Part shown: positions 14,347 to 38,113 of the stretch, piece by piece
Layout: each line of letters begins with the position of its first letter
Numbering within the stretch: position 1 is the first letter of the stretch
NCBI GenBank assembly: GCA_001662655.1
Contig: KV460245.1
From: Pseudogymnoascus verrucosus
Lineage: Eukaryota
Length of the DNA stretch: 64,000 bases
Direction: 5' to 3' (one strand)
Program-made: the position numbers and the translations under genes
Notes under the pieces: model-generated
Told to the model about the DNA's origin: nothing
Databases searched by the model: none
What the model saw: the letters and a program-made list of their open reading frames with translations, nothing else

Positions 14347-14584
14347 ATTGATTGACTTGTTCTGCGGCAGCGACGAGGTGGTGCTGCTGAAGGTTTCTCG
14401 TAGTGGCACAGGGGTGACGTTGAGAGTAGCTTTCGTCTAGCTAAGCGGAGCCTTCCGCGTCACTGGCGTGTCCTAAAGCCAGATTGTCGGAAACGCCAAC
14501 GCGAGCTGTCAGCCTCGTCTCGTGGTAGGAAGTTGTTTCGCGCGCGCCCTGAGACCAAAGACGAACAACAACAATTTAGAAGAT

Positions 14585-15471
14585 ATGGCGGACGCAAATG
14601 CGAAGATCACGGTGCATTCACTGTCAGGTATGTTATTTACAATTCAACCCCCCTCAAAACTGCACCAATTACCCCCATCCATCTCTCACACCCCAAGCTC
14701 CCAAGCTCCACCTGTCAAACCACCAAACTAACTCATTCCCCCAGACCTCAAAAACACCTCCGACGACGCAATCCCCAACTACCTCAATTCCCTCTCCTTC
14801 AAGCAATCGCACACGCTCTGCGACGTGCGCCTCGCGCTTGGCTACTCGGCCTTCGCCATCTGCGCCGCCTGCTTCTGCTGGGACTACAAGCTCGGCTTCG
14901 ACGATACGAAGTACTACAGCGCGGCAGCCGTCGCGCTTTACACGCTCCTGAATGGCGCGCTGACGCTGTGGGTTTGGCTTGTCGAGGGAGGGACGGTGTA
15001 TGTAGGGACTAGTAAGGCGGGCGATAAGGTAAGCTGTCTATCCCATCCCCATCACCCTCTCACCCACCTTCTCACTCACACTCCCACTCTCACTCTCACC
15101 CCAAAACCGAGCGCAAGCTAACACCACACCAGATCGCAATCTCCACCTCCACAAAAAAGCACACCCCAACCTACACCCTAACCATAACCTCTCAATCCCC
15201 CACCTCCCCCGCCGCCACAACCACCACCCTCTCCCGCCCCTTCGCAGACTGGTTCGACAGCGCAGGCCACTTCGTCGCCCTCCCCTTCCAGCAGATGCTC
15301 GCCGGAGCCGCTCCCGTGATAGGGAAGGCTGATCCCGGTAGGGCCGCGCTGGGGGTTAAAGGGAAGGAGGCGGAGGTGGCGGCGTTGAGGGAGACGGTGG
15401 AGGAGGCTGTCAGAGCTAGTGGGAGTGCTGTTGGTGGGGAGGGGGCGAGGGGGAGGAGGCAGAAGGCGTAG
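14585..15471 (+). CDS. SPC2: Signal peptidase complex subunit 2 (SPC25 family), 3 exons
   Basis: Spliced product MADANAKITVHSLS/DLKNTSDDAIPNYLNSL..DVRLALGY, two TM helices, then PFADWFDSAGHFVALPFQQML. Stop TAG at 15469-15471. Confidence 0.87.
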
Positions 15472-15689
15472 AGGGAGAGAGCATGTAGGTTTTAGAGATT
15501 GCGGGCTGGCGTTGAGTCAAGGAGAAGGGAAAATGGGTTGGGTTTGGGATTGGGGGTAATGCTCGCGCGGTCGGGGTTGGCTGGCGTGAAAGGGGGAGAG
15601 TTGTGTTGGCAGTTTTACAATTTATATGAAAGAAATCTGGACTCTGATGGGCTGTTCTGAAAATGAAAGATATGAGGGCGACGAAAGAG

Positions 15690-15740
15690 ATGCAATTGAC
15701 ACAAGCAATGCAATCGACCCAAGCAATGCAATCGACACAA
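15690..15740. repeat. 18-bp tandem repeat, about 3 copies (ATGCAATCGACACAAGCA)
   Basis: atgcaattgacacaagca / atgcaatcgacccaagca / atgcaatcgacacaa. Confidence 0.7.
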
Positions 15741-16082
15741 CAGATGACAATACGGGGTGGCCTATCGCCGTGTACCAGCCTTGCAACATGCTACACACGC
15801 GCTTAGAGACTTATCATAGGAAGGCTAACTTACCTAACAAAAGAGAGGAGGCGCCAACGTGAAAACGATGGATACTATTGCTCTATAGCATGCTATCTAA
15901 ACCTACCCAATACAGTGTTGGATGACGGGTGCATACAGGCGGGAGTGATCAGTGCAGTGATACGGGAGGTACTATCTGAATCCATGCAGACGCATTAAAG
16001 GCAGATATCTTTCACTGATACTAGGCAAGCAACAGGTCGACGCCATGGATGCTCGTGTGGCTATTCACGCAACAAAAAAATT

Positions 16083-16145
16083 ACATGCAACAGTAGGTAT
16101 TCGCTGGTGGTCACCCACCCAACTACTAATCTACCGATTTCAAGC
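16083..16145 (-). rRNA. 5S rRNA: 5S rRNA gene 1, 3' part (nt 57-119), interrupted by element 1
   Basis: Reverse complement reads GCTTGAAATCGGTAGATTAGTAGTTGGGTGGGTGACCACCAGCGAATACCTACTGTTGCATGT, the typical ascomycete 5S 3' half. It is followed by AA and a T7 Pol III terminator (16074-16080). Confidence 0.92.
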
Positions 16146-16286
16146 AAACACCTGGATATTACTTAAATCGGTGCCATCTGGCCTAGCGGGTGAGCCTCGC
16201 CGCCCTTACCCTTGTTTCGACCACCTCGACCATCCAAAAGTGGGTCCATTTTTGACGACGTGTTGCACTGCGACATTAGATGCACA

Positions 16287-16398
16287 CAGGTGAGCTGGGT
16301 GGGTAGGTGAGCATGGTGAGCAAGGTAAGCAGGGTGAGCAGGGTGAGCAAGGTGAGTAGGGTGAGCTAGATGGGTGAGGAAGGTGAGTATGGCTGAGC
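16287..16398 (+). repeat. Left subterminal array of degenerate 9-bp CAGGGTGAG repeats (element 1)
   Basis: caggtgagctgggtgggtaggtgagcatggtgagcaaggtaagcagggtgagcagggtgagcaaggtgagtagggtgagc... Confidence 0.85.
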
Positions 16399-16835
16399 TA
16401 GGGACATGGTATAAAGGGCTAGTCTCCCGCCTTCACATTTCAAGGTCCTCTTTCTACAACTTTGTATTTTTTTCAATATCTACTACAATAGGACGGAAAG
16501 CCCTTCCTCCTAAAGATCGGCTTGCTCTGGCACAGAAGCGAGGCTATTCTGCGTAGTTTTGTGGAGGCGTTTGGTATGGACCGTGCACATTGCGTCTCGT
16601 ATATGAGGCTGAGTTGACTCCTCTCGTTCAAAATCCTAGCATTAAGCTAGGCGTCCAATCGTCATTCAAATTTTCGATCCCAAATGGTATCTGGCACTTC
16701 CTCAAGATCGGTATAGCCGGTTACAGTGTCTCCCCCCTTGAAGTCTACAGCTAAACCACACGCTACGCTTCTGACGCACACCATCCTTCGTAACAGGCAT
16801 CATCTTTAACGTTTATATCACGCTCCCCGTGATAA

Positions 16836-18759
16836 TTAAATGCTAACCTTAATAACATCGGCAATCTTCTCTGCAATCGCATAAATCGTACTCGTCAAAT
16901 GCCCACTGACCTGGGTCGGGATAACACTTGCGTCAACAACCCTTACGTTCTGCGTCCCGTAAACCCTCAGCTCACTATCCACAACTCCGCCAAGCTCTCT
17001 TGACATCATAGCTGCCGTTCCTAGTGGGTGTGAATTCCCAGCAACTTGGTGAATGTCAGTAAGAAAAACGTCCCAAGAGAGGTAGGACACTAACAAGTGG
17101 TCTTCACCCAATTCGCCCATTGCTCATAAGAAGCATCTTTAGGCAATGCATCAAATCCAGGAGACGTCTCAGTTGCGAGACCTTGGATAGGAGGCGTTTC
17201 CCAGAATTTCCTTGTCCATTTCGCAATCGCTACTTGGACGTCGACGTCAAAGTCAACGAGGAAATAGTTTGGGTTTATGACCGGATATGCCAAAGGATCC
17301 GAGGAGCTAATATGCACGTTGCCTCTGGAAAAGGGCAGTAAAAGCCAAAATGCTGAAGCTACCAAACCGCTTGGACCTAAGCCAATACTGAAGGTTGTCT
17401 CGAGGATTGATTCTGCATCCACAACGCCGTTGTTAATTAATTCATATTGTATGCGGAAAAGTTGTTCCAACGATGATACGCTAATAGCATGATCGATTGC
17501 GACTGCAACTTTCTCAGCCCAAGCCGTTAAGTTGACATTTTTAGGCAGCGAGTCCAAAAAATCAGAAGCTGAACCGAAAGCTACGTATGGAATAGATCCA
17601 CTAAACGTTGTATTAGAAGACATGATAATCTGGCTGTTCGGTTGGTCTTGTAAATTTTCGCCGACGGCGGGGAGGTTGACCTTGACAGGAATTCCGGATT
17701 TATTTAGGATGCTTCTCACGTCAGTAAACTTGGTGTGTTTTTGAGGAGGCTTAACTACCTGGGATTTCCTATTCCTGAGAGCTCGAGAATGGCAGGAGAT
17801 CTTAATGAGCCGGCTGAGAGAATGACTTCACGTTTGGCATCAAGGGTAGTAACTGTGCCATCCGCAGCTGTTATTTCCACACCACCTGCAACAGCGCATT
17901 CGCTCGTGGACTCTCGCCAGGTAATCCTATTTGCAACTGTGTTTAGGAACACGTGAAGATTGGGCCTGCTTTGAACTGGGTAGTAATACGCTCTACCAGC
18001 ATCTTCTCGCAGGTTAGCATCCCGATTCATGGTACTCTGCCAAACAGTAAAGCCTCGAACATTGCCACCATTAACATCAAGACTCGTAGGAATGCCCAAA
18101 TTGTTCCATGCCTGTTCTACCACTTCGTGGTATGTGCCATTCAGCAGTCCAAAGCCATATCCTACATTTAGTGGACCTTTTTTGCCATGTTGTTGTGAAA
18201 CGTATGTTGCACCTGCTTCGACTTGAGCAGATGTGGGAGAATCGAACTGCTCGCTTTTTAGGTAATACGGGAACAGGTCGTCCCAACTCCATCCACTATT
18301 TCCAAGTTTTTCCCAAGCATCTATCTGAGCTTTCTCTGCGCGCACATATGTCATGCCTAGATTTGTTAGCGATCAACATTAGGGATGCTAAGATCATACC
18401 ATACCATTGATTGTGCTCGTTCCACCAAGAGCTTTGCCAGAGTGATATGCGATTTTTTGGTCTCCTGCATGAGTTTGATTGACAGATTCATATTGCCAGT
18501 CGATCGCGGTACCAAGGGCGAGCGTGAAGGAGTTTGGGTCCGTCACATTCGGATTGTTAATGACTTCACCGCCTGCTTCAATTACTGCGACAGTAACATG
18601 CGGAAACTCAGTAAGTCTATTGGCCAGAGTCAGGCCTGCTGTTCCACCGCCAACAATAATAAAATCAAACTCGGGTTCCAATGCGGCACAATGGGAAACT
18701 AGCAAAGCTGGTGCGACAAGGACAAATGCCCAAGTTCGAAAGTGAGTTGGAGCAATCAT
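16836..18759 (-). CDS. Secreted GMC oxidoreductase (glucose oxidase/dehydrogenase-like, AA3), 4 exons; cargo of element 1
   Basis: Signal-peptide-like N-terminus, [15 protein letters not shown] motif, [47 protein letters not shown] and catalytic HPLGTAAM and [13 protein letters not shown]. Three GT-AG introns all splice in frame. Confidence 0.92.
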
Positions 18760-18866
18760 AATAGAAAGGTTTAAAGTTGACAGTAGCGAGGTGGGCTACG
18801 GGAATTTCTTAAGATTATTATGGGGCAGTGCATGGGTTTTATAGTTCTTGACGATGACGAAACTAT

Positions 18867-18963
18867 TAATTCGGCCCTATCCTTTCTTTCAGGGAGTTGA
18901 AAGATAATTCGGCCCTATCCCTATCCCTGAAAGAAGGGATAGGGCCGAATTATCTTTCAACTC
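18867..18963. repeat. Nested inverted repeat: perfect 29-bp hairpin plus an overlapping 28/29 inverted copy
   Basis: 18894-18922 is the exact reverse complement of 18935-18963 (12-nt loop). 18867-18895 pairs 28/29 with 18924-18952. Confidence 0.9.
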
Positions 18964-19016
18964 AGTAATAAATGGGGTAACTTTTGAGACTAGTGTGCAT
19001 TTCGTAGGATTTTAGT

Positions 19017-19051
19017 GCCCTGCTCACCCTGCTCACCCCTCGCCTCACCCT
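19017..19051 (-). repeat. Right subterminal CTCACCCTG array (element 1), inverted relative to the left array
   Basis: gccctgctcaccctgctcacccctcgcctcaccct. Confidence 0.8.
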
Positions 19052-19122
19052 TCAGGCGGCAAGGGGCCGTGATTCCGCGCCATGCCTATTGGCACGATTG
19101 AGACCATTAGTCTGATGTTACG

Positions 19123-19183
19123 CAAGCTTGTGTATGGCAGAGCGGACGGGATGCCCAATTCTCTTGAGTCTATGGTCGTATGT
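19123..19183 (-). rRNA. 5S rRNA: 5S rRNA gene 1, 5' part (nt 1-61)
   Basis: Reverse complement reads ACATACGACCATAGACTCAAGAGAATTGGGCATCCCGTCCGCTCTGCCATACACAAGCTTG, with the canonical fungal 5S start and the CATCCCGTCCGCTC loop. Confidence 0.92.
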
Positions 19184-19752
19184 GGAAGATGAGGACGTAT
19201 CCATGCTTTTGAGGCGAGTGGACTTGCGTAGGATAGAGATGCAGGCTAGACTTCCCACACCCTTACCACCACTATTACTTGATCTTCGTTAGGACCAACT
19301 GGCCGTGAGTAGACGGCGGTGTAGTAGGGTATCATGTATGTATTCGTTATCCAGTTATTACTTTCTCTCTCGTTTTGCTCTTGTATGAACGAATAATGAG
19401 AATAGCAGCCTATATATACTAAAATCATTCCCAGGTTTAGACGACTGCACCAAGATACCATCACTTTAGCAGATAGAAAATAAACCCCCCCGTTAACACA
19501 GATGCTTTCGTCTGGCTATGAGGAAGTGCGATGCGGGGGGAGGGTGATTAATGAGTGAAGTGCGTTTGTATTCATATCTATCTATCTCCATTTATCATCC
19601 GGATATGCACCAGCTGTCTATCAAAACCGGCAAACGCCTCTCAATGCAACTTCCGAAAAATACCATCTATACCACTCCCGAAATAACCAATTTCTCTCCC
19701 ATATCTCTCTCAATCTCCATCCCAACCCCCCACCCCTCAATTCCCTTCCCAC

Positions 19753-22700
19753 TCAATTCCCCTCCCCCTCCCCAACCCTCCACCAAGCACTCAAACAATC
19801 CACCCCCCCCCTCCTAACCTCTCTCCCCCCATCCCCCACCACGGACCCCAACCCCCTCACCACCCCCCCTCTCAACCTCGCCACCACACTCACCTCCCAC
19901 ACCTTCGGCAAGATCTCCAGACATTCCAGCGCGCGCACCTTAACCTCCCTACTTTCCCTCCCCGTCGCACAAGCCAACAACCTCTTCACGAGCGCTGCGT
20001 CGTGTTCTTGTAATGCCTTCGGGCTGCTGGTAGCGGCGGAGCGGAGGACGGCGATGGAGGCTTTCTTTGTGGCTGCGGGGGAGGAATCCAGGGATTGCAG
20101 GAGGGGAGGGAGGAGGGAGGGGATGAAGGGTGTTATGTACTCCTCCGGCGCATGCCCCAACAATCCCGATAGCGCAACGAGGACATTTGTTTTTGTCGCG
20201 GCAGAAGTGGTAGGGGAGGAGAAGGTGGAGAGAAGGGCGGGGACAGCGGTGTGGAAGAGGCGCTGTTGTGCGAGGGGGCGGATGAGAGCGTGTTGGCGAC
20301 GCGTGAGAAGTGGTGAGGGCGCGAGGAGATGCGTGAATGCCTGTGCGGCCAACTGTCCCGTCGGCGCTGGTAGTTCGAGCGCGGATAAGAGGGCGGTGGT
20401 TAATTGCGTCGCAGCAGGCAACCCAGCGAGGAGAGAGGCGTGCGTGCACGTCGTCAAGGTTTGAATCGTCAACTTCGCCTCCTGCGCCGACAGCGAGGGA
20501 AAGGTAGTGAAAAGACCCAGGAGCTGTGCTGTGACAGCAGGAGTTAGAGCGGCGAATTTGTTGATCAGGAGGGAGAGGATGTCAAGCAGCGTGGAGCGCA
20601 AAGCCGGGGTGGAAGAGGTGGTGGCGAGGTAGGTGATGAGGTTTGTGACGGCGGCGGTGGTGTTGATGGTTAGGATGCGCTTTTTGACGGGAAGTGCTGC
20701 TGGTGGTGGGCTGGCGGCGACGACAGAGGCGGGCTTGGTGACGCGGTTGTCACGGCGTAGGGTGGCGAGGATGTATTTCGTCAGGGTTAGAGCGTGGAGT
20801 TTGTCGGCGGGGCCGGACAGGAGGTCGAACTGCGCATCAATGATGTCGATGCGCTTGGAGATATCAGTGTTGGCGGAGAGGTCATCGTCGACGGGGAGGT
20901 CGTCTGGTGAAGTGACGGCGACGCAGGCAGCGGTGAAATCATCGTATGCGACGCTCAACGCAAATGCCCTCTCAAAGATCCAGTACTGCTCCTCAAAGCC
21001 CATCCCGCAGGTGGCAGCCATGATGATCCTCCCCACGACGTCCAGGAAGGTATCGTCAGGCTGCACCTTGCCGCCTGCGGTTTCCAACTCACGGGTCCCG
21101 ACATACCACTTCTTTGAATGCACCTTGAGCGCCGCGGTGCGACGAAGCAGTTCATCAACAAGACTGCGATAGTCCTCCTCATCTCTCATTGCGACCTCAC
21201 CATTCTCACTCTGCGCCTGCCTCTGCTCGACAGCGTATAAGATCCCCGCAAGCACCAGGTGTGCGTACTTCTGCGACTCGTTCGCACGGAGGACAATATC
21301 CAATTTGCTCAGCAATCTCCGTAAGAGTGTGTCCATAATTCGTCCCCTGGAGCCAATATCACCCAACGCTTGCAGCACGGCGAGTTTGTCCGCAACAGTC
21401 TCCTCACCTTCCAAAACATCCGGCAACGAAGCCAGGAGCACAGGGAATGCCTGCTCAGTAACCAAACGGGTATATAGCACCGCACACTCCTGCAGTGCTT
21501 TGATGGCCTCTTTCCTCACAGGCTCTTTCAGATCCGCCGTCTCGAGCACAACGCCGGCCAAAAACTGGACATACGAGTCCAAACTCCCCTTCTCCAGGAA
21601 CTGCGGCAGCCTCAGCAGCTTCGCCAGGCCCTGCATGGCCGCAACGCGGAACTGCTTGTCATCGCACTGGGTATCCCTCGCGACGCCCATATACATCGCC
21701 GTCAGCTCGTCACGGTAGTACTCAAGTCCCTTGTTCGCGACGCCTACATCCGTTCCAGACTCAGACGCGCGATCGGCATCAGAGCTGATCCCGTCAATAA
21801 TCCCCACAGCGCTGAAGTCCCACTTATCCTGTCGTCTCAACGCCTCAAACTTGCCATCGAGAAGTAAATTGGTCGTCTCGACCACCGCGCGCTTATCGGC
21901 TACACTTGCATCTCGGCCGCTAAATTCTTTCAACAGCTCGGGGATCGCGGCGCGCATGACGAGGTGATACGCGAATGGCGATGCGGCGATGATGGAGGCC
22001 ATTATGGCACCAGCACTGGCGGAGTTTTTGGGCCCGTTCTCGCGCAAACGTGTCATGCACTCATCGACGATAGCGGCGACGTAGGTCTGCAGCACGGTGC
22101 CGACGAGGTTTTGGATGACGAGGTCGCCTGAGAGGCGGGCAGCGATGGCGCCGAGGACGTCCAGGGCTTTAGGGGCTTGAGAGTCGTCACTCGAATTAAA
22201 GATCTCGTATTTCAAGGCATCCCATAGAGGGCTGCTCCATTTGGAGACAGTGGTCGGGTGGTAGCGCTCGATGCACGCTTTCATAGTGAGTAGCACGTCG
22301 GCTTTGGCGTTGAGGCGATTCGGGTCGTCGAGGCGCTGGATGAGGTTTGGAAAGATGGAGGGCGCGAAGCCGCTATAGGCTGCGAAACATTTCCTCAATC
22401 TCAGTACCAGCTCGGGTGGATCGATGCTGGCGGGATCATTCTTCTTCGCCGAAAAGGTAATCGGAAAGTATCGCGAGAGCAATTCATAAAGATCTTCTTT
22501 GAGACTATCGATATCATCGATATCCCACTCCGCGAGTATCACCTCCACCATCGAGAAGATGAGCATCAGATTCCTCGGATCCCTCTCGCTCGCCGACAAC
22601 TCAATAAGCATATTAATGAAATCCACACCCGTGGCCTTCATCACATCGCGGTGTGCGCTCAGAAGCTCATCCAGCAGATTATAGACTTCGAACCTCGTCA

Positions 22701-23374
22701 TCACCGACATCTTGGTGAAGCCTCCCGGGGCGGCCTGGGCGGCATTGAAAACCTGAGAGACCAGCGTCGCTGCACGAGCGGCCTCAAAGCGCAACATTGC
22801 CACAAGATAGCGCAGGGATTGAACGGTCTCCTTGAAGCCGCTCGGGTCGAGGCCGAGGCGTGCCTCGACGAAATTGAAGAGGAGTCGCACTAGATGGTTG
22901 TGTTAGGTGAATTCCCCTCAGAGATAAGGAAGGATAAGGAGGAAAGGAAACTCACCATTCGATCGCGTCAGGGCGTCGGGTTTGAGACCGCGCAGGATGG
23001 CTGCGACGTACTCCATGGCTATTTGTTGTCAGCTCCGTGTTTCCCAATTCGAGATCGGGGTTCGGGGGGGTAGACGACGTACTTTGTGTCTTCTGCTCGT
23101 CGTCGTTCCCGAATAACGGATCACGCAGCGAGAGCACGACATCTCCTAGTTTGGTACTCCCATCTTCGAGTCCTGTGGTAATCAGATGTCAGCTTTGCTC
23201 CTTCTATCCATGTCACCCTCATCACCCCGGAGCCGGAGACACCCATGTCCTGCCTACCTCTCTAGAATCACAAAATCAAGCACACATACCTTTAACAACA
23301 CTCTCCACGATCTCTGTCCTCCTCTCCCCTTCAGGCGCCAACAGATACGCAGTTGCCGTCAGCGAGTCCTCCAT
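19753..23374 (-). CDS. MMS19: MMS19/MET18 cytosolic Fe-S assembly HEAT-repeat protein; short 5' exons approximate
   Basis: 1045-aa exon with ERDPRNLMLIFS, YFPITF, LRLRKCFAA, LWDALKYEI and C-terminal IRPLAQQRLF, LLPPLLQSLD, REVRRGGVDCLSAW. Upstream exons inferred from ATG 23374. Confidence 0.85.
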
Positions 23375-23737
23375 CTTGAATGTTGGTGGAGGTGACAGGC
23401 AAAAAGGCAGTTCAATGCTGTTGGACGAGGAAGTTTGGGTAATCGGAGTTATAGCGGAAGATGGTGGATTGGTGGGGCGGGGTTACTGCCGGCGTGGCGC
23501 TATGCCTGATGGGGTGGGCGGTGAGGAGAGGGGTCGTCGGCGAGGCGATGTCAGAATTGGGTGGGACAGACAGGCAGGGACCCATTTTCTCACATGTCGA
23601 GTAACCTCCCGCCGCCGTCTTCCGCGGCCTTCCGCCATAGCTATGATTTAAATTTACGAGGCGGCAGTTTACTATTAATGCTCATCGTAGCCATTCGGAG
23701 GGATTTTAATAGAGTTTTTATACAATGAAAAGGTATA

Positions 23738-23870
23738 TAATAAAGGTGATAGAAGGTGTGATAATAAATGTAATAATAAAGGTAGGAATAAATTAATAAG
23801 TAAAGTCAAATAATAAAGCTGATAATAAAGTCAATAATAAAGCCATTAATAAAGACAGTAATAAAGCCAA
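23738..23870. repeat. AT-rich degenerate repeat with about 12-bp period (TAATAAAG core)
   Basis: taataaagct gataataaagtcaataataaagccattaataaagacagtaataaagcc. Confidence 0.65.
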
Positions 23871-24171
23871 TTATATTAATCTCTTAATTAACTACTCAAT
23901 AAACTCATCTCTGCCCTTCCATCTCCCTCGTCCCCTTCCTTCATTATAACCACAAAACAAAAAGAAACATTTGCCGCAATAATGAGGCTCATGGCGTCCC
24001 TGCGGCCAGGCAATAGACAAAACCGTCTATTCCTCCAAAACGCCATTCCTCCCGCTAAACAGCGCCATTTATGCCGATTTCAAGTCTGATCACGTCCTAA
24101 AACGCGATCAGAATCTTACTTCCCTTCTCTTCTCCCTCAGGATCTCAAGATACAAAGAATGCTCAGAGCGT

Positions 24172-24438
24172 TTAATGCGGCCCCATAATATTCCCCCTCC
24201 CCGCCCCATACTTCTCCATCATCGCCTGAGTCGGCGTACGCGCCTCCTTTCTAATCGCCTCCTTCTCTGGTGATGGGCCAGAGAGGATTTTCTTTGTTTT
24301 TTGGAGGAAGGAGTCTTTTTTTGGTGAGGGTGTCTTAGAGGACGAGGATTGTTTGGCGTCGCGGATGGTGTCGGCGCTGGAGGCAGTGGTGGAGTAGGAG
24401 TAGGTGGATGAGGCGTAGGAGGTGCGTGGGGAAGGCAT
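24172..24438 (-). CDS. Small Ser/Lys-rich hypothetical protein (88 aa)
   Basis: ATG in a good context (accaaaATG), product MPSPRTSYASSTYSYSTTASSADTIRDAK..., codon usage like neighbouring genes. No family recognised. Confidence 0.5.
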   Translation of the reverse strand: MPSPRTSYASSTYSYSTTASSADTIRDAKQSSSSKTPSPKKDSFLQKTKKILSGPSPEKEAIRKEARTPTQAMMEKYGAGRGNIMGPH

Positions 24439-26540
24439 TTTGGTGGTGGTGGTGGTGGTGTGGTTGGTGTGAGTGTGGTTTGGGAACATATAAATTTGTT
24501 GATTGGATTGAGGAAGTTGTTGAGTTGAGATATTCAGTATGCTGATTGTCTTCTGTCTGTGATTCTGATTCTTTGTCTGTTTCTGCTCCTCCTTTCCGCG
24601 CCCATCGAGGGTATACTTATACTTTAATCCACAAGCCTCAATCAAGCCCATCACAACCTACCTCTCATTTCCAATCCACGCACACGCATCCGCCTACGTA
24701 CCGTCCCTCGTCAGCATCCAGAAACTACTGTACCTTCTTTCCTCACCGAGTCCAGATCCAGACCCATCAGTCGCCTCTCCATATCCAACTTTTTCCCCCA
24801 ACCCCAGCCACATACACCCACTACTCCCGATTCCGATCGTCTCACCTCTGCCGCTGACTCACCACGGGCTCAGGCAACTACATTACCTAGCACTCCACAC
24901 GCACACACACGGCATCCTTGTTCCTGAGGCGTCAGCACGGTGCCGTAAGCCGGTGTATATCGGACGCGACCAGGAAGGTTCTGGTGTGCGCATGGACTGG
25001 AGTCTAAATTATTAGTGCGTCTTGTAGTTTCTCCGACCATACTTGTGTCTTGTGTTTTGCTGAGCAATCATCTTCTCGAATGGAACTAGGAATGGCGTTG
25101 GACTATCAGCGCTGGTGGCAGTGGGGCGGGCGTGCGTAAGACGCTTTTCCGTTGGTGGATGTGCCAAGGCCTGTCATGGCTGTCATGGCTGTCATGGCTG
25201 TCAGATTTGTTCTGGGTGTCCGATTTTTCAATGGGTGACGCGCCAACCGAGGGTGATAAGGCGAGAATTGAGTTTGCTGTAGTGGAAACGATCGTATTGC
25301 AGTTTAGTGAGTTTGGATGCTCTAGTCTGGATGTTTGTTAGTTAGTTCGTATGACGACGAGATGGAGGAGTCAGAGAGAGCCAGAGAGGTACGTGCTGGG
25401 CTGTGTTGAAATGAGTGGAGGATGAGAAGGGGATGGGGAAGGTACGGATAGAGTTGGATCGCTGTTGCTCTACACAACCAACGACAACCAAACAACAACC
25501 AAAGTTAGTGTCCCAGTATAACCTCATTCTTGCCTAATCCTACTACTCACTCTCTCACCTAGACTATATCAAGAGGGAAGCACCAGCAATCCATACCCAC
25601 GTGACACCTCTATATACCACCCCAAGTATGAAAAAATACAGTGTTCAGTCTTCTCCTCGCTAACACAACCCCCTCCAACCCCTCCAACCCCCGCATGACT
25701 CAACCCCCAAAAACCCTCACCACATCATCCCTCCGAATAAGGAATAGAACAGAATAAGCACACAAAAACCTTAAATCCCTCGCCAAGCCGTTGACGAATC
25801 CATTGCGTCGCCTTGCGGCCATCGCCCATCGCAATTTCCCATGCCTTGTTTGTGAGGATACTACTGCGGCGACGACGTGTCAGAGGTAGAGTCACAGACC
25901 GGATGGCAGGTGGGTCTCGGTACGATAAGATGGGATGATGGATGGTCTAGATGGGGGAAGCTGGACTGGATACTACTATGGCAGTACGTGATGGTTTTGT
26001 TGATGTTACAGAGGCAGGCGTTGATGATGATGGCGTGGCTGTGCATCGGGGAGGGAAGGCTCTATGCCGGGGTGAGGGGGAGTACCGGTGCCGTGATGCC
26101 GAAGGGGATATTAATTACCAACTGTATACCTCGGCGAGTAAAGAAGCAGGCGATGCGAGACGACGCGTACGAAGTGCTTCAATGACGCCATAGGTGTTGT
26201 GGGTGGGGTATAGTATATTACAGGGCGTTAATCACGTGCTTGACTTTTAAAAAGTTGTATCTGAAGGTATACCTCACGACCCTCTCTCTTGATGGATATG
26301 GTCCGTCATATACGCGGAATCAATCGCACTCAAGGAGGTAAGTTACGCCGATATGACGGTTTTACGGGGCGTTATCGACGATAGCCAAGATATCCACGCC
26401 CTTCTCAAGACATAGGTATGGAGCTCGTATTAGGTAATCAGACATCGGCGACGTATATACTTCCACATCACAATATTCTCATATCCTCCATATCACCAAC
26501 TCCATTTTTTACATTCTCCAACTCAGACGCTATCCTCACA

Positions 26541-27812
26541 ATGACCGTTCCCAAACCCCCAACCCGCATCCTCATCCTCGGCTCCGGCGTCGTCGGCTCC
26601 TCCCTCGCCCATGTTCTCTCCACGTCCTCCCTCCCCCCCTCCACCACAATTCAAGTCCTCTCTCCCCCTCTCACCACACTCACGACCTCCACCTCCCTCG
26701 CACCCGGTCTAGTCGGACAACTCAACGCCCTCCCAGCTCTCACCACTCTCGCCAAGGCAAGCGTGAAGGCGTATCTCACTCTCCCACCAGGAGCTTTTTC
26801 TCAAGCCGGGGGGTTGGAGATTGCGAGTTCGGCTGAGGGGATTAAGATATTGGAGGAGAGATTGGAGAAGGCGCGGGAGGCGGGGTTGGAGGCGCGGCTC
26901 GTTGATTCGGAGGAGATTGCCAAATTATCCCCGCAATTCCACGTCAAGGATGGGGTGTCGAGGGGTCTTTATTTCCCGACTGATGGCGTAGCGGAGCCTT
27001 CAAGGATCGTGGAAGCCTACCAGGCCTCCGCGCGCGCGAATGGGGTGGAGTTCATCGAAGCCATCGCGCTGGGTATCAAACACCTCAATGGCGTGGTGAA
27101 GGGCATCAACACCTCCGCCGGCTTCATCAGCGCCGACAAAATCATCGTCGCAAGCGGGATATGGAGCGCAGAGTTACTGAAGGATATCCTCCACATCCCT
27201 GTTATTCCTGTTGGGCACCCCTACCTCCACGGTGCGCCGCGGCCGGAGAGGGGGGAGAAAAGCCCGTTTGTCCGCTGGCCGGAGAAGGGGGTTTATGGCC
27301 GCGACCACGGCGCCTGCGAAGGATTCGGAACCTACGACCACGCACCCCTCCCCGTTGCCGCCGCGGAGGGCGCAGAGAAGGGGTGGGCTCCCGAGTTTGA
27401 CTCCGCTGTTGAACGGGCGCTGGGGTTATTCCCCTCAGAAACCAGGCAAGCAATGACAGCAGACGGGTCTCGGAAATTTAACGGTGTCTTCGCGGTAACC
27501 CCCGACGGACTCCCCGTGGTGGGGCCAGTGGGGGATATAAATGGCCTCTGGGTCGCGGCGGGAGTGTGGGTTACGCATGCGATGGGCGTTGCGGGGTTAG
27601 TTGCTAAGATGGTTTTGAAGGAGGAGAGGGAGGTTGAGGTTTCGTCTGGGGGCGAGGGGAGTGAAGTGGTGGAAGAGGTGGTGGTGGTGGATGAGGAGTT
27701 TGAGGAGTTGAAGAGGGTGTTGAATCCGGGGAGGTTTGGGGGGAGGGGGGTGGAGGAGTTGAGGAGGGAGGCGGGGGGGAGGTATAATGATATATATAAT
27801 CTTGAGGAGTAG
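26541..27812 (+). CDS. FAD-dependent oxidoreductase, DAO/sarcosine-dimethylglycine oxidase-like
   Basis: RILILGSGVVGSSLA dinucleotide-binding motif, TSLAPGLVGQL, GLYFPTDG, FNGVFAVTPDGLPVVG and GLWVAAGVWVTHAMG. No introns. Confidence 0.85.
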   Translation: MTVPKPPTRILILGSGVVGSSLAHVLSTSSLPPSTTIQVLSPPLTTLTTSTSLAPGLVGQLNALPALTTLAKASVKAYLTLPPGAFSQAGGLEIASSAEGIKILEERLEKAREAGLEARLVDSEEIAKLSPQFHVKDGVSRGLYFPTDGVAEPSRIVEAYQASARANGVEFIEAIALGIKHLNGVVKGINTSAGFISADKIIVASGIWSAELLKDILHIPVIPVGHPYLHGAPRPERGEKSPFVRWPEKGVYGRDHGACEGFGTYDHAPLPVAAAEGAEKGWAPEFDSAVERALGLFPSETRQAMTADGSRKFNGVFAVTPDGLPVVGPVGDINGLWVAAGVWVTHAMGVAGLVAKMVLKEEREVEVSSGGEGSEVVEEVVVVDEEFEELKRVLNPGRFGGRGVEELRREAGGRYNDIYNLEE

Positions 27813-29535
27813 GAGGGAAGGGAATTGATGGGATGGATAATAGCTGTGGATGGACTGGTTGAAGGTATGTGTGAGTTGATAGTGTTTAAAAAGGCGTTCT
27901 GTGGAATATGACGTGGATGATATAAAGGTCGGTTTACACCTCCTATACAACAAAATAAATCGAAAGGACATTGTCCACCTTGAAAAAAGCATCCATATGT
28001 GAAGTATGATGCATTCCCAAGATGTTGCGCTTTCAAGTCCAACATAGTTGCACCGGGGATTACGGTGTGGTATAGCTGATATCGTTGCTGTCGCTGCGGT
28101 ATTCTCGTCATCGTCGGTCTCTTGTCACTGCTGTATTCTCATCTTTCATTACTCCATCTCCTATCCCCGCTCACGGGAAATGTCTAAGCACATCAATCTC
28201 AAATCCGCAACCCCCATCTAAAAACACACACGGACGATGTTGAGAATTGGTGTAGCGGTTACTAGCTGGGTTGTAGTTCACATCAGGATCGGTCGTTGAG
28301 GGCTTTTAATCCCCGTCGGTCATTCCGGAAGGATAGATTCTTGCCTGTTGCAATGGTAGTTATTTTACACATCATACATTTCGAGATGTAAGAGGTTCCG
28401 TTGCCCGTAAACCCCACGCATACCGATTGAGGCCGAGTCATACAAGAAAAGTGCGAAAAGAAGGGGAAAAGGAGAGGGTTCTCCCCGAGGCGCGGGGTAG
28501 CAATGAGAAAAATAGCGTAAAACTATCACCTGAGAACCACTGCCGACAGACATGAGGAGGAGACCACAGAAGTTGGACATTGCCGTGGTGGATCTGATAT
28601 CGTTGTTCCGCTATAGCCCTTGCTGTCGCCTCTGTTTTCTCGTTGCTGTGGTATTCGAACCACCGCCGCCGCTTCCTGTCACCACTGGATTCTCACATTC
28701 ATGCCCGCCAGTCTACCATCTATCTAGCGCCATATTGAAGCCTTTGCTTCTCCTTCAGCTCGGGCCAACGCTGATAAATTCTGTTTCAATTCCAATCTCT
28801 CGGCACTCATTTAGAGTGACAGTGCGAGGATTATCCTTGCTGTGGTTGCTCTGTCTCTTGCGTGTATTGCTTTATTTCCTGTCTCTTCAGGTGTAGGATT
28901 TAGAGGCACATTAATCTCGAATATGTTGGCGATGAATTTGTTCTCGGAATTATACTCATCATCTCCATCTTCACTCTCATAAACCTCCTTCTGCTGCTCT
29001 CCTCCAGCTTCATCCAGCTCTACCATATCACCGCATAACTTTGTATCTATTTTATACACATTCTGTATCGGATCGTTGCATCCCATGAAATAAATACTGA
29101 ACGAAGACTAGCGATGAGCCCTCACATCTGGAAACTACTATATGCCTGTTCTTGTAGCCTAGGTTGAATATCAAGCAAGGAGGAAAACCGCCGTCGTTGC
29201 GTTGTCGCTGCAGTTCCATTCTCGTCGCCGTTGCACTCTCGTCACAACCGCCCCTATCTGTCACCGCGCTGCATTCTGACGATCGTATCCGCCACTCCAC
29301 CATCGACCTACTGCCTTAATAAAGGAAAGTTGTAAGTATGCCAACCTTAGGACGGGACTTGCTCATCTCTTGTATGGGTTGTGGTAATAGAAGACGGGAA
29401 TTCTGGCTTCTGGCCCGGTGATATAGGTATCGACCCTATATGGGCTTCTCGGTTTGAGGCTGGAATTGCTCTCCCCTTTCCCACCCCCGACCCTAACCCC
29501 CCAAAAATAGGAATGAAGCAAAAGAATAAACAAAA

Positions 29536-29598
29536 ACATACAACAGTGGGTATTCGCTGGTGGTCACCCACCCAACTACTAATCCACCGATCTCAAGC
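29536..29598 (-). rRNA. 5S rRNA: 5S rRNA gene 2, 3' part (nt 57-119), interrupted by element 2
   Basis: Reverse complement reads GCTTGAGATCGGTGGATTAGTAGTTGGGTGGGTGACCACCAGCGAATACCCACTGTTGTATGT, followed by a T-run terminator. Confidence 0.92.
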
Positions 29599-29757
29599 AA
29601 TCCTCTAGATAATAGTTAAACCGGTGCCATCCAGCCTAGTAGTTGAGCCTCGCTGCCCTTACCCTTTTTTTGTGATCGCGACTACCTCAACCACCTCGAC
29701 CACCCAGAAGTGGGTCTAGTTTTGACAACGCGTTGCACTGCGACAGTGGACGCCTTT

Positions 29758-29838
29758 AGGTGAGCAGGGTGAGTGGGCGAGCGTGCTGGGTATGGTGAAC
29801 AGGGTGAGCAGGGTGAGCAGGGTGAGCAGGGTGAGCAG
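29758..29838 (+). repeat. Left subterminal CAGGGTGAG array (element 2)
   Basis: Four perfect tandem CAGGGTGAG copies (29800-29835) plus degenerate copies upstream. Confidence 0.88.
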
Positions 29839-31417
29839 AGGGTCACATGTGAGACGGGAAACTCGTTCTTCATCCGCTGCAGCACCACTATATTGCAGAT
29901 TTGATTTGGGCTTCGTTCACAAGAGGATACAATTAAGAGGCCTGTGCGCTAGTAAGGTAGCCACAGCTTATACGGAGCTTATGTTCATAGGTTTTGTGAG
30001 TGGGGGGAGATATTAAAGCCTCGCGCACGGCTCCGCGGAAATCGATGATGTATCTCGCCTTATATTTTGTACGTGATCGATACATGAGTATATGCTGCTG
30101 TGCACAAATCCTGGGTCCCTTGTTCGATCCACTCGCAAAACTTTTGAACATTACCCCTGTACTGACTCGTGTGAAGGGTCAATACTTGTGAACTACTGGC
30201 CCTGCTCAGCCACCACTCCTTTAAGAAAATATCAAATTCTGGTGCTGTGTGTTGTGTGCCGCGATGTTCGGCCGGCACCTGTTTCATTGGTCGGATACTT
30301 ATAGGGAGGTTATGTACATAAGTTTTGTAAGTGGAGCCTGTGTGTTGATGCCACTAAGACGGAATCTGCGGGGTATGCTTAAAATGGAAATTGTAACACC
30401 CTCAATCGCAGGGAACCCCAGCTTTAGTTGGTTGGTTGGGGTTGGTTAGGGGTTGTTGGATCTGGCTCCGAAAGACTGGTGGTTGGTAACCTCTCGATTT
30501 TGGAGTATGAGCTCACGCCTACCCCATAAAGAGCCTTAAGGAGAATTGGGGCATTATTACGAGTGGGTCTTTACGTTCGTAATTAGCTTAATTGATCTAC
30601 GTGGCTTACGCTATTGAGTGTTACGCTACCATTCTAAGCGTACCCCGCAGATTCCATCTGTGTGGTATCAACACACAGACTCCACACTTTGTCCTAGGCC
30701 ACCTGTGGATAGAGATGCTGTAAAGAATCACACGCCAAAGGCTCAATCAATGTTGGCTTTTGCAAGGGTAGAGTGGCTGATTTTAGGAAGTGAATGTCTA
30801 TACGGAGATATATACACGCCATACCATGGTGGACTTGATAGAAGACTAGTTGGTTGGAAGTATGAAGAGATCAAATGAGACGGGATGAGATTTGGAGAGG
30901 GGATAGATAGTTGGTTGAGGGCGCTATTTTTGTGGGCGCGGATGGTGGAAGGGGATCCACTCCATGTGCATGTATGGGATGGAAGTTGCGCGGTATAGCC
31001 CTCAGCTACTATCCCCTGAGTGATTATCGCGACACGCTCTGTTAACAAAAGGCAACTGCGAGTTAGATCTTCGTATTTACGCCTTTGTACCAGGTTACTT
31101 TCTGGCAAGTTCCGGCATTGACAAGGCGCTATCAGGGGAGCTGTTAGGGTGCCATCATTTTGACATTCGCCAAAAGCCCGTATGTGACATCGATCCGCCT
31201 CGGAAGTGGTTTATATAGTCTGGGGTTCCATTATTGCTCCAGAACTGGTGCGAATTACCTTCTCCATCTCAGACTACATACAGCCACATCACCGCATCAA
31301 AACAATTGTTTTGAGGTGGCGATGTCTGTGCTGTTGAGTAATATATATGTATTCTTCGGTTGCAGTGCCTAAGGTCTATATATCCATGATATTGAAACCA
31401 ATTGCATGAGATGAGCA

Positions 31418-32903
31418 ATGCAGGTCCTTACAGAGGAGCAAACGAGAGCGCTAGCGGCCGAAACTAGAGGTCCCATTCTCCTCGGTCTTTCGATATCCTT
31501 TACCGTTTTATCTTCCATCTTTGTGGTATTACGAGTCATCGCAAGGTTCTGGATTATTAAGGGTGCAGGATGGGAGGATTATACTATAGTGGTGGCTGTG
31601 GTACGTAAGAGGACGCGAATTGTTATCGAAAGACACAGTCTAATATACTACGTCTTTAGGCCTTCAACGTAGGAATGGCAGCGTGTCAGATTCAAGGTGA
31701 GCCTTTCCTTTAGCTTCCTGATCTCCACGACACCCAATTGCTAATTCCTCCTCAGAGGTGAGATATGGCACTGGCCGGCACGTACAGTTTCTTGAAACGT
31801 CACAAGTCGTTGGCATTCTCAAGGTCAGTTCCATTGCTCTCTCCAGAAAATCCATTGATCTCACGCTTATAGTATCTCTTCTGGAGCATTATCTCTTACT
31901 GTGTCACCCTTAGCCTCGTTAAAACGAGTATTCTCCTCCAATACTACCGCATCTTCGGGGGGAACGATGCAACGAGATATGCAATCTACGTGGCCCTCAT
32001 CATTGTCATCGCATTCGGAACGGAGTGCGTAATCAGTGATATCTGGACCTGTGTACCAGTTCAAGCCTTCTGGGAACTCAGTCTCCGGCCGACCTCTAAA
32101 TGTGTGGATCAGAACAAGTATGTATTCATGCACGCGGCTAGGGCGACGATTCGAACTTCATACTAACTTTGAGCAAGGCTCTTTCTGGCCAATGCCTGCA
32201 TAAACATCGCTACCGACCTGATAATTGCCACGATTCCTCTGCCCATCGTCCATAAACTCCGCATCCCCTTCCGACAAAAAATTGCATTGATGGTCATCCT
32301 CGGCATCGGTTGGTTGTACGGAGCCCCTTCTCCCCCTTCCCGCAATACCACAAAGCTCACATCACCCCACATAGCATATGCGCCGTTTCCATGCTCCGGC
32401 TCAACTCCATCATCGGCCTCGCTAAGCAAGCCGACACTACCTTCTACAGCGGTGAAACAGCTTACTGGTCCACTATCGAAGTCAACGTCGCGATCATCTG
32501 TGCCTGTCTCCCGACGTTAAATCCTATCTGTAGGCTGATCTTCCCACGCTACTTCAGATCGACCCAAAGCGCGAAGTATGACTCGAACAGTGAGCGCATG
32601 TTAGGCAACAACGCGTTCGTTCAGCTCGCTGGGGGCGCCTCTGCGTCGAAATCGAGGCAGGTGGGCAAGAGGAGCTGCAATGGGGACGAGGACGGGCTGC
32701 GAGCGGCCGAGAGGTACCAAGCGGGGGTGGCGGCGAATCTAAATGGAGACGACGGGAGGGCAGAGGATGGGAACGAGCAGGCGATTCGGGTGGAGAGTAG
32801 CGTGCAGCAGACCGTCTACATCGAAGACGATGAGAGCGGGCAGAGTTATACGAGTGCGAGCGTGAGCCAGAGGGACTTGATCCCTATGGTTCCTGGGCGC
32901 TAG
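31418..32903 (+). CDS. PTH11-like (fungal rhodopsin-domain) 7-TM integral membrane protein, 6 exons; cargo of element 2
   Basis: Spliced motifs VVLRVIARF..GWEDYTI, YGTGRH, KTSILLQYYRIF, CVPVQAFW..C, NIATDLIIATIPLP..KL..PFRQK, ICAVSMLRL and WSTIEVNVAIICACLPTL. Five GT-AG introns splice in frame. Confidence 0.9.
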
Positions 32904-33090
32904 TGGAAATGGAGCTTCTCCTTTGACGATTTAGACTTCATTCGTGAGTATGGCTCACAAATGACAAATAAGCTATAAAATAAGAGCAAGGCACCCTTAA
33001 TATGGTATGTAAGTTAAGATAGCCAAACTTCAGTGCTGATACGAGAATGATGCGGAAGTGACGCCAAACTAACACAAAGATGTTGCTTTG

Positions 33091-33158
33091 CCTCACTCAC
33101 CCCACTCACCCCGCTCACCCTGCTCACCCCTACCCTCACTCAACCCTCGTCTCACCCT
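33091..33158 (-). repeat. Right subterminal CTCACCC array (element 2)
   Basis: cctcactcaccccactcaccccgctcaccctgctcacccctaccctcactcaaccctcgtctcaccct. Confidence 0.82.
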
Positions 33159-33229
33159 TCAGGTGGCAAGTGGCCCCGATTCGGCGCTATGCCTATTGGC
33201 ACAATTGAGACTATTAGCCAGAGGATACG

Positions 33230-33290
33230 CAAGCTTGTGTATGGCAGAGCGGACGGGATGCCCAATTCTCTCGAGTCTGTGGTCGTATAT
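33230..33290 (-). rRNA. 5S rRNA: 5S rRNA gene 2, 5' part (nt 1-61)
   Basis: Reverse complement reads ATATACGACCACAGACTCGAGAGAATTGGGCATCCCGTCCGCTCTGCCATACACAAGCTTG. Confidence 0.92.
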
Positions 33291-34355
33291 GATTGTTCTT
33301 TGAGTATGGCACAATGTAGGGGTGACGAGACTCTCGGATCGAGACCACAGTACGCCACCCTTTTTATTTAGCCTCCGCCCCCTCCCGTTTGTTGCCGACT
33401 ACGGCCATTTTATATTGCCCCTGCTTGTCGCAGTATATCTGCCGGCTGAGGGGATCTCAAGGTAGCTAACTCCGTCTCTTCTGAGTGTCCCCTTCTCATG
33501 TTTCCTCTAGCATGGGATATTATAGAAGCTGGGTATCGAGCTAATATATCTGATATAATTGCTCTCGCTGCCCTGCTGCTGAGGTGCAGGGATATGGAAA
33601 CCTCGCAAGCATAAAAAGGGAACCTTGGGTCTGAAACGACAGCCAGAAGAAGAAGAGAAAGTCGAGCAGGAGAAGGCCGCGAAAGAGAGGGCTGAGCAAG
33701 AGAAGGAGACTGAGAGAATAAAGAAAAGACGCCTCTACGAAGAGGCCTTGAGCCGTGAGCCAACTATGAAGTGAGGCGTAAAGCGCTGTTGCTGTATTCT
33801 CATCGCCATTACATTCTCGTGATGGCAGCCTCTTGTCACCGCTACATTCGCTGGCATAGTTCGTGCCTGCCCCCCTACATCCATAAACACTCCTCCGGTG
33901 TTGACTCTCTCCATCAGTCGTAGCTCAGCTCAATATCCTCCCATTTCATGAACTCTTCCGTGTACCCCCCTCTCGCTAGGGGCGACCCCTCTTGCCTTGT
34001 AATATAGTGCGACAGCAAGCCCGATTGTGAGAAGTTCAGAAATCTAACTACTGGTAGTGGTCTGGTACTAGATAGACACCTGCGTGGCTGGAGTAGTTCC
34101 CGTCTCCTGTTCGTGCGTAAATAGGGGCTGGTATCCACACTGGCAAAACTGGGCCGCGTTTCTCTTGACCGATCGCAGTTCATGAACGTCGATCATATCG
34201 ACTACCCATGAAAGGTATCTACGAGCATTTCACAACACGAACGACGAAGGTAAGATGTATAATATTATAAAAGAATGTGGTTCAATTTGAAGAACTACAA
34301 CCGAACAGAAGTACAACGTGGCAATATTCCAGCCAACATTTCAAAGCCTCTCCCG

Positions 34356-37283: not shown

Positions 37284-38113
37284 TACTGACACTGGCGCTG
37301 CCGCTGGCCGCAAAACTAAACCCACCACAGTAAGTATTTTTTCCTTTGCCAAGGACAGACAGAAGACAGAACCTCATCTCGCAGTTAATCGCACGTGTGT
37401 GTTATGGAGTAACTATAAGCTGTCATGCATGCACTATGTAAGTGCCCAGTAAGCTGACGGTGTGTACGAAGAAGGCTGCGATCGACACCTCAGTAATTCC
37501 TGTCAGCTTCTATAGAATAACCTTACTGTACTTCATACAGACGATTTGTAGACTAAGGCTAGTTTTGCTCTCTAATGCATGCAAGTGAGAGTAGTTAAGG
37601 GGTGAGGTCCCTCGATGAAAGGTGATGAGATAAATGAACTCCCAGACATCGTGAAAAGTCAATCATATAAGGTTTGGACACGCATATTAATTAATGTAGA
37701 GCAGAGCTTTCTCTTCTAACTGCCGAGTAACAGGGGCTGGAAGACCACGTGATGTTTGCTTCTTGGATATTGGAACCATGCAGCAGTGGTGGTCTGTGGT
37801 GTACTCCTTGCAGGATGTACTCTGACAGAAACGGAACCTTGCATCGGGAGGTCACCTGACTTGGCGTAAAGTGACACGCGCTCGGAAGCACGTTGTCGCG
37901 ACGACATGATTTCTCCACTTCCACGCACCAAGTTTGCTTCCAGGCACAAACGGCAACACCAACCGCGTCGTTTCGTTTCGACTGGATCAAATATGCCATG
38001 GACAGCAAATAAACAATAACTCTCGCCAGCCATCAAATTCAAGTCGGCTGGGCTCCAAGCACGATTTCTCGGGCGTTTCCATTCCCCGAGACAAAGGCCC
38101 GAAGGCTCATGAA

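Follow-up and report, generated by a model that had tools for sequence, protein, structure and literature searches.

Starships are fungal cargo transposons that are moved by a tyrosine recombinase of the DUF3435 family, termed the captain. According to the starfish survey they insert in 5S rDNA at at least 5 distinct sites and range from 15 to 511 kb in size, the smallest being 15,020 bp long (PMC11162782), and a circular intermediate has been described for their movement (bioRxiv 10.64898/2026.09.21.753150). In Aspergillus fumigatus, the Osiris Starships, which belong to the Enterprise family, carry the direct repeats aagcc, ttaagccac and aagccacacg within the sequence ccgtacttaagccacacg (PMC12153272, Tables S3 and S4), and an engineered mini-Hephaestus with a frameshifted captain has been mobilised by a captain provided in trans (PMC10104507). 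Here we analyze a 64-kb stretch of contig KV460245.1 of Pseudogymnoascus verrucosus (assembly GCA_001662655.1; henceforth the window, whose positions serve as coordinates), in which two 5S rRNA genes are each split by a small insert, elements A and B. These inserts share both of their ends, hold one unrelated gene each and lack a captain, and we regard it as highly probable (about 0.9) that they derive from a 5S-specific Starship-like lineage. That the miniature elements, or at least A, have moved in this reduced form with a captain acting in trans is a reading we favor more guardedly (about 0.55), given the low divergence of A in related organisms compared with that of its flanks, and the published trans-complementation.

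An Rfam scan of the window recovered no family at the gathering score; hence, it contains no intact 5S gene. A relaxed search in E-value mode returned two partial 5S matches, both on the minus strand and both below the threshold of 38 bits: one of 25 bits at 16082-16179 and one of 24.8 bits at 29535-29616. A preliminary description of this DNA, made from the sequence alone, had reported two 5S genes split at nucleotides (nt) 57-61, with CAAGC doubled and the inserts equally oriented, and our script confirms this to the base: CAAGC (sense GCTTG, 5S nt 57-61) is present at 4 of 4 junctions, excision of the insert with one copy of CAAGC restores a 119-nt 5S gene at both loci, and A and B have the identical orientation relative to the 5S gene. 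As with the direct repeats of Starships, the border repeats of both elements match their target. The two loci comprise the following features (TIR, terminal inverted repeat; aa, amino acids):

16083-16145, minus strand: 5S nt 57-119 (3' part) at the element A locus, from sequence reading and the relaxed Rfam match
16141-16145 (left) and 19123-19127 (right): CAAGC direct repeats of element A
16146-19122, plus strand: element A, putative captain-less mini-Starship, 2977 bp
16146-16553, plus strand: left (captain-proximal) arm of A, with an imperfect TIR at ~16147-16188, conserved blocks, a nonamer array, TATAAAG and a captain remnant
16289-16366, plus strand: nonamer array in the left arm of A, 8.8 copies of GGTGAGCAG (Tandem Repeats Finder, period 9)
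16410-16416: TATAAAG in the left arm of A, with a probable promoter role
16488-16553, plus strand: remnant of a DUF3435 captain in A, comprising codons 1-22 and followed by a stop; the ATG start of the homologues is replaced by ATA
16836-18759, minus strand: cargo gene of A, a secreted-type GMC oxidoreductase (PF00732, PF05199); predicted 4-exon, 593-aa open model
19018-19122, plus strand: right arm of A, with 2.3 inverted nonamers at 19018-19038, a conserved block and a TIR at ~19078-19119
19123-19183, minus strand: 5S nt 1-61 (5' part) at the element A locus, from sequence reading by script
29536-29598, minus strand: 5S 3' part at the element B locus, from sequence reading and the relaxed Rfam match
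29594-29598 (left) and 33230-33234 (right): CAAGC direct repeats of element B
29599-33229, plus strand: element B, putative captain-less mini-Starship, 3631 bp
29599-29843, plus strand: left arm of B, with a TIR at 29600-29629 and 9.0 nonamers at 29759-29838
~31418-32903, plus strand: cargo gene of B, a PTH11-like membrane protein (PF20684, Fung_rhodopsin); open, with ~5 exons in an uncertain model
33042-33229, plus strand: right arm of B, with 4.1 inverted nonamers at 33094-33130 and a TIR at 33197-33226
33230-33290, minus strand: 5S 5' part at the element B locus, from sequence reading by script

What A and B have in common is a left arm of ~245 bp and a right arm of ~105 bp, placed around unrelated single genes. 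BLAST comparisons within the window showed that the left arms are 76.3% identical over 232 bp (E 3e-48) and the right arms 84-87% identical over 79-90 bp (E 4e-24), and they recovered no third copy of the arms in the 64 kb. The identities that the preliminary description had counted at the ends (55/68 on the left and 67/79 on the right) are reproduced exactly by our script, and its view of the interiors as unrelated, with one gene each (GMC versus PTH11-like), agrees with both the BLAST and the Pfam results. The left arm of A aligns to B 29605-29836 and also to positions 7649-8096 of a metagenome contig, L003, and its homology extends beyond the TATAAAG motif. The subterminal repeat is a 9-mer, inverted between the left and right arms. 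Local alignment of each left terminus with the reverse complement of the right terminus, evaluated against 2000 shuffles, detected imperfect TIRs of 30-40 bp with scores of 15 in B (0/2000 shuffles), 26 in L003 (0/2000) and 11 in A (12/2000). An element-specific covariation of left and right TIRs was considered and rejected, as cross-comparison revealed no preference of an end for its own partner. The nonamer arrays read GGG-N6-GGG-N6 and, as a pattern only, fit G3N6, the usual G-quadruplex pattern, which lies on the top strand in the left arm and on the bottom strand in the right arm. We conjecture that these arrays are captain binding sites.

The affinities of the elements emerged from searches for a recombinase. 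Among the 219 stop-to-stop open reading frames (ORFs) of at least 90 aa in the window, none has a DUF3435, recombinase or transposase domain, and read-through translations of A 16400-16842 and B 29840-31422 match no Pfam family, including DUF3435. A tblastn search of the window with 15 DUF3435 proteins yielded a sole match, the 22-codon remnant in A: this segment encodes IGRKALPPKDRLALAQKRGYSA, which is identical at 17 of 22 positions to the N-terminus of P0011 (E 5e-5) and at 14 of 22 to the 1047-aa protein P0015. Thus, the earlier statement that the inserts hold no recombinase ORF stands for all 219 ORFs, but needs the amendment that A retains captain codons 1-22. The left deletion breakpoint of A, at 16553, falls inside the captain ORF. 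In B the homology to L003 stops at 29843, just past the nonamer array, and the captain remnant is absent.

A scan of metagenome contigs with a 23-nt right-arm motif identified 14 loci; as L005 duplicates L001 and L009 is part of L011, 12 are unique. A degenerate left-arm pattern scanned against bacterial and archaeal contigs gave no match, a collection that is not informative for these elements. At 13 of the 14 loci, or 11 of the unique ones, the right arm adjoins the 5' half of a 5S gene, at the position and in the orientation seen in A and B, so that these 11 together with A and B give 13 of 13 independent insertions that point the same way. The twelfth locus is L003, where a right arm, a single repeat-like copy (AGAGC) and a left arm directly after it follow one another in the region 7560-7720, with perfectly complementary 15-bp terminal repeats flanking AGAGC. 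The L003 left arm is 71% identical over 339 bp to A 16220-16550, and leads, on the same strand, into a stop-ridden DUF3435 pseudogene (8043-10050). The sequence downstream of this arm is AT-rich (GC ~0.30), and the repeat-induced point mutation (RIP) indices of the captain stretch are 1.61 and 0.62, as against 0.74 and 1.28 elsewhere on the contig. When this stretch was translated with X at stops, two neighboring frames proved collinear with DUF3435, one matching PF11917 with E 2e-7 (30.7 bits, cut-off 25.8) and the other with E 0.0014. A phmmer search of 1.84 billion representatives with a 600-base portion of the read-through retrieved 14 matches (best E 1e-19), 12 of which carry DUF3435. The intact homologue P0015 is collinear over aa 4-591 with L003 8043-10050, which places the captain ~390 bp from the left terminus and reading inward, as in the Starship layout. 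In A and L003 alike the captain start lies ~340-390 bp inward of the left terminus and reads inward; in the family that owns these arms the captain is therefore the first gene, as a pseudogene in L003 and as a remnant in A. The preliminary description had proposed to look for a larger copy with a DUF3435 gene inside one end, and in L003 a left arm is followed by a DUF3435 gene degraded by RIP. Together with the remnant in A and the 11 larger 5S insertions, this upholds the proposal that the inserts are captain-less members of a 5S-targeted Starship-like family.

The metagenome loci also clarify the nature of the direct repeat. The intact 5S genes of the metagenome organism (L011 9711-9830 and L013 10176-10295) have GGAGC where those of the window have CAAGC, and the junction repeats at its occupied loci are (T)GGAGC; hence, the direct repeat has the sequence that the host's own 5S gene shows at a fixed position. 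An alternative in which GGAGC is element-encoded, rather than a target-site duplication, was rejected because the intact 5S genes of the organism themselves carry GGAGC. Loci L001, L007, L011 and L013, with 7.5-10 kb of visible interior, show neither a left arm nor a captain in that interval, and their cargo is multi-gene, including a Zn-cluster transcription factor, an arginase and MatE and MFS transporters, an NmrA protein, and a CitMHS/ArsB transporter. In L003 the 7.6 kb up to the contig start encode an OTT_1508 deaminase and TPR proteins. Among 83 ORFs from the interiors of these elements none showed a transposase domain, and at no locus are the flanks orthologous to those of the window. 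The larger elements L001, L003, L004, L007 and L011 have in common a right-hand region of 570-1400 bp with 80-90% identity; this conserved region spans the right-hand 0.4-1.4 kb, is without a Pfam match and is absent from A and B. At two loci of the metagenome organism, L011 (9711-9830/9916-10073) and L013 (9959-10295), an occupied 5S gene has an intact one as its neighbor, at a distance of ~80-90 bp.

We then have to ask whether the miniature forms themselves have spread. Contigs from public sequencing runs of four related organisms (X2, X3, X4 and X6) were aligned to 14500-34400 at 85% identity or more. In 4 of 4 relatives the interior of A is found on a single contig of 2622-2683 nt which extends across the 16553 breakpoint and terminates within an array at either end (16422 or 16361 to 19038-19051). 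As these contigs cross the breakpoint, the same mini-element A exists in all four relatives. Its divergence, and that of the adjacent flanks, is as follows:

X2: A interior 13/2626 (0.5%); adjacent flanks 1.8%, 0.16% and 1.2%
X3: A interior 13/2626 (0.5%); adjacent flanks 59/981 (6.0%) and 158/3920 (4.0%)
X4: A interior 18/2617 (0.7%); adjacent flank 126/3920 (3.2%)
X6: A interior 21/2691 (0.8%); adjacent flanks 98/1377 (7.1%), 40/604 (6.6%) and 266/3959 (6.7%)

In X3, X4 and X6, A is thus 5-10 times less diverged than its adjacent flanks, and every long segment (>1 kb) is diverged by at least 2.0%, with one 129-bp piece at 1.6%. This suggests that A seems to have spread between species after shrinking. 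The arms themselves occur in several copies in all four relatives, where 4, 14, 9 and 7 contigs cover position 29621 (these are contig counts, and depth gives no copy number). The preliminary description had expected the ends to recur in related genomes and had named their absence as the first ground for refuting it, a ground that these copies remove. In two runs a head-to-tail joint, 33229->16141, connects a B-like right end, one CAAGC and an A-like left end. Head-to-tail junctions, in L003 and the two relatives, are without 5S sequence and resemble single-copy sequence in depth; either elements integrated in tandem at an occupied site or excised circles could account for them.

Joints that correspond to an intact 5S gene (29593->33230, with 5 shared letters) occur in 4 of 4 runs and are not assignable to the A or B loci. 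The flank contigs of the relatives enter 5S at the orthologous place, with pieces ending at 16110-16117 and starting at 19159-19161. Further element termini are seen at the same 5S position in 4 of 4 runs, with 5-10 contigs per run at 19123 and 1-6 at 29597/29598; they read TTAAAGTGGATTAATACTCAGG... on the left and ...GAGTAATAAGCAAATGGATTA on the right. This is a second related end family in the relatives, with the same site and orientation. The joints 16383->19037 (X2, X4) and 16360->33104 (X3, X6) were set aside as candidates for cargo-less copies, because the matches are 25-26 nt long and lie inside repeats.

Some features of the interiors and surroundings deserve mention in their own right. 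Nested perfect palindromes occupy 18867-18963, in the stretch that separates the start codon of the GMC gene from A's right arm; one pair has 29-nt arms at 100%, the other is at 97%. A below-threshold match of this segment to a plastid 3'UTR family (32 vs 53 bits) is surely spurious. The gene-free 1.5 kb of B contains inverted repeated units at 29970-30690, including the pair 30331-30387/30629-30685 with 57-nt arms at 88%, and a ~33-nt unit occurs three times in this gene-free part; the repeated units may represent a nested small foldback or MITE-like insert (MITE, miniature inverted-repeat transposable element). The split 5S genes are flanked by housekeeping genes, namely SPC25, MMS19 and those for a sugar transporter and a DAO-family oxidase. 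Two long open frames, 37910-41611 (1234 aa) and 3888-6272 (795 aa), match no Pfam family at E 0.001.

Based on these observations we propose the following history. A full member of the lineage would begin with a left arm made of a ~30-40-bp TIR, conserved blocks, ~9 nonamers and a TATA-type promoter, followed by the captain gene ~340-390 bp from the left terminus and reading inward, then by the cargo, and finally by a right arm with 2-6 inverted nonamers, a conserved block and a TIR. Integration would be orientation-specific and directed to one 5S position (sense nt 57-61), with the 5-6-nt stretch common to element and target becoming the direct repeat; such a shared-stretch repeat is consistent with conservative site-specific recombination via a circular intermediate. 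Element A might then have arisen by a single deletion that starts at captain codon 22 and stops shortly beyond the last cargo gene, and B by a deletion beginning right after the nonamer array, both arms being kept in each case. One deletion per element would suffice if the gene kept is the cargo gene nearest the right arm. As the left breakpoints of A and B differ (16553 and 29843), the two would go back to different parents, and what looked like interchangeable single-gene cargo is more simply the last gene remaining after one internal deletion in each of two parents. A cognate captain from a full-length relative would excise and re-integrate such minis in trans, and A would have spread as a mini among at least five related organisms after their divergence.

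Several observations weigh against this history as a whole. No intact captain is seen within the window, and the sole captain physically joined to a left arm is a pseudogene from a different organism. Only two miniature members, A and B, are documented, the other members with a visible interior being all larger than 7.5-10 kb or truncated by a contig end. The TIR of A is weak, given how often shuffled sequences reach its score. The closest relative, X2, shows no contrast between A and its flanks (0.5% vs 0.16-1.8%). No empty-site allele or second insertion site of A or B emerged, as such sites would fall where contigs break, at the repeated 5S genes and the arrays. B differs from the relatives by 2.2-3.4%, about as much as its right flank does (2.0-2.9%), and 141 bp of it, including most of the left nonamer array, are missing in 3 of 4 relatives (joint 29784->29926). 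From this divergence and the loss of the array B looks old and vertically inherited, and possibly dead. The main rival explanation builds on these points: A and B would be immobile relics of two large Starships which lost the captain and most of the cargo in place, with no movement since. Captain-less degraded Starships are known (PMC9156397), the different breakpoints of A and B speak for separate origins, the ATA in place of a start codon and the weak TIR of A fit a decayed element, and a window devoid of a captain is what this explanation expects. It accounts well for B. It accounts poorly for A, which recurs with an identical left breakpoint in 4 of 4 relatives at 0.5-0.8% divergence, against 3.2-7.1% for the flanks in three of them, whereas a vertically inherited relic is expected to diverge like its flanks; further, both arms are complete in both elements. 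On balance we consider it rather unlikely for the pair, though deserving of serious attention.

A might instead owe its low divergence to strong local constraint, or to gene conversion or introgression at an unchanged locus, rather than to transposition of the mini-element. The orthologous entry of the relatives' flank contigs into 5S would be compatible with this if A occupies that locus there, and divergence in the window is heterogeneous, ranging from 0.1% to 8%. Yet the drop in divergence matches the element borders within a few hundred bases and includes non-coding parts of A, and 13-21 differences in 2.6 kb are well below the most conserved long segment (2.0-2.9% over >1 kb), making this explanation improbable. 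A more radical departure would take the elements for a cut-and-paste transposon of the DDE type that has TIRs and subterminal repeats and duplicates 5 bp of its target, and the DUF3435 gene of L003 for an unrelated neighbor. While 30-40-bp TIRs, subterminal repeat arrays in inverted orientation and short repeats at the borders are indeed classical for DDE elements, the start of the captain ORF keeps a fixed distance to the left terminus (~340-390 bp) in both A and L003, which are independent elements, neither the 219 window ORFs nor the 83 element-interior ORFs contain a transposase domain, all 13 insertions have one orientation, the target site equals that of the Osiris Starships, and head-to-tail junctions with a single repeat copy exist (L003 and 33229->16141 in two runs). 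We therefore see hardly any room for a DDE transposon. Descent of A and B from a 5S-specific Starship-like lineage, with mobilization of at least A as a mini, remains the explanation we prefer.

Starships have been described as giant elements, and A and B fall far below the survey minimum of 15,020 bp (PMC11162782). Current finders start from the captain gene, and captain-less minis are hence invisible to them. If 3-kb derivatives with ~350 bp of arms are mobilizable, the minimal cis-requirements could be read from natural sequence as the TIRs, conserved blocks and nonamer arrays; single accessory genes could move within and between fungal genomes with no giant vehicle; and split 5S genes would provide a cheap marker for such cassettes. 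A bolder generalization, which we put forward tentatively and think more apt to fail than to hold, is that Starships spawn a genuine class of trans-mobilized minicassettes, with ~350 bp of arms around one expressed gene, for which dispersed 5S genes would serve as attachment sites in the way attI does for integron cassettes, and which can cross species borders as 3-kb units. In that case A might be the first example, having undergone one deletion and then spread into at least five organisms, and the inverted GGTGAGCAG arrays might be arm-type captain binding sites that define the minimal mobilizable unit.

Our full-text literature search, which did not cover bioRxiv supplements, turned up no paper on naturally occurring Starships that are miniature or non-autonomous. 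A and B encode no captain, and at 2977 and 3631 bp with one gene each they have neither the size nor the multi-gene cargo of Starships; with both arms kept, the enzyme gone and the interior deleted, they have the shared termini of a non-autonomous deletion derivative. In this respect they resemble MITEs and the Ds derivatives of Ac, which have lost the enzyme gene but retain the termini and rely on an autonomous relative to move. Unlike MITEs, their enzyme would be a tyrosine recombinase, they hold an intact host-type gene, and they occupy a single site in a multicopy RNA gene. Small RNA genes are also the targets of the Dada DNA transposons, which have a DDE transposase and a 6-7-bp target-site duplication. 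A and B do not fit that group, as the gene linked to their arms encodes a DUF3435 recombinase and no transposase domain was seen in the ORFs examined. Closer is Voyager, a Starship that likewise uses dispersed 5S genes (PMC9156397, PMC11162782), but it is reported to insert 20 bp from the 5S 5' end (PMC9156397), whereas A and B lie at nt 57-61. Derelict Starships, as they have been characterized, share with A and B the loss of a working captain and the persistence of cargo (PMC9156397; bioRxiv 10.64898/2026.05.11.723792); those described are large regions recognized by Starship-type cargo or degenerate recombinases, while A and B are ~3 kb long with intact termini and direct repeats, and A shows a signature of spread after its deletion.

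The closest natural counterpart is Osiris. Its empty site, ccgtacttaagccacacg, aligns position by position with CCATACACAAGCTTGAAA here, and the repeats overlap, the GCTTG repeat of A and B corresponding to GCCAC in Osiris. Anchored on the conserved GTCCGCTC...GCC context, the Osiris site is the same 5S position as ACACAAGCTTG here; A and B are thus inserted at the AAGCC region of the 5S gene, as Osiris is. Osiris and the A/B family have in common this 5S position, a DUF3435 captain, short direct repeats and TIRs, and by eye the Osiris TIR gaacgcggtcaataccc is loosely like CAATCGTGCCAATAGG here. The tabulated Osiris elements are ~28-155 kb long (one row of Table S3 has 11.7 kb) and have a captain, as opposed to 3.0 kb for A and 3.6 kb for B with none (PMC12153272). 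Nonamer arrays are not mentioned for Osiris in the portions of that source drawn on here. The host class differs too, the named captain homologues of the present family coming from three Leotiomycetes and one metagenome-assembled genome of a lichen fungus, and by its insertion site the present family is at most a candidate member of the Enterprise family. For the mechanism proposed for A and B the nearest parallel is mini-Hephaestus, which is likewise small, with both Starship flanks and one cargo gene. That construct is artificial, belongs to another family with the target TTAC(N7)A, and has flanks of 3.8 and 1.9 kb (PMC10104507), whereas A and B are natural, 5S-specific, and carry flanks of only ~245-405 bp and 105-190 bp.

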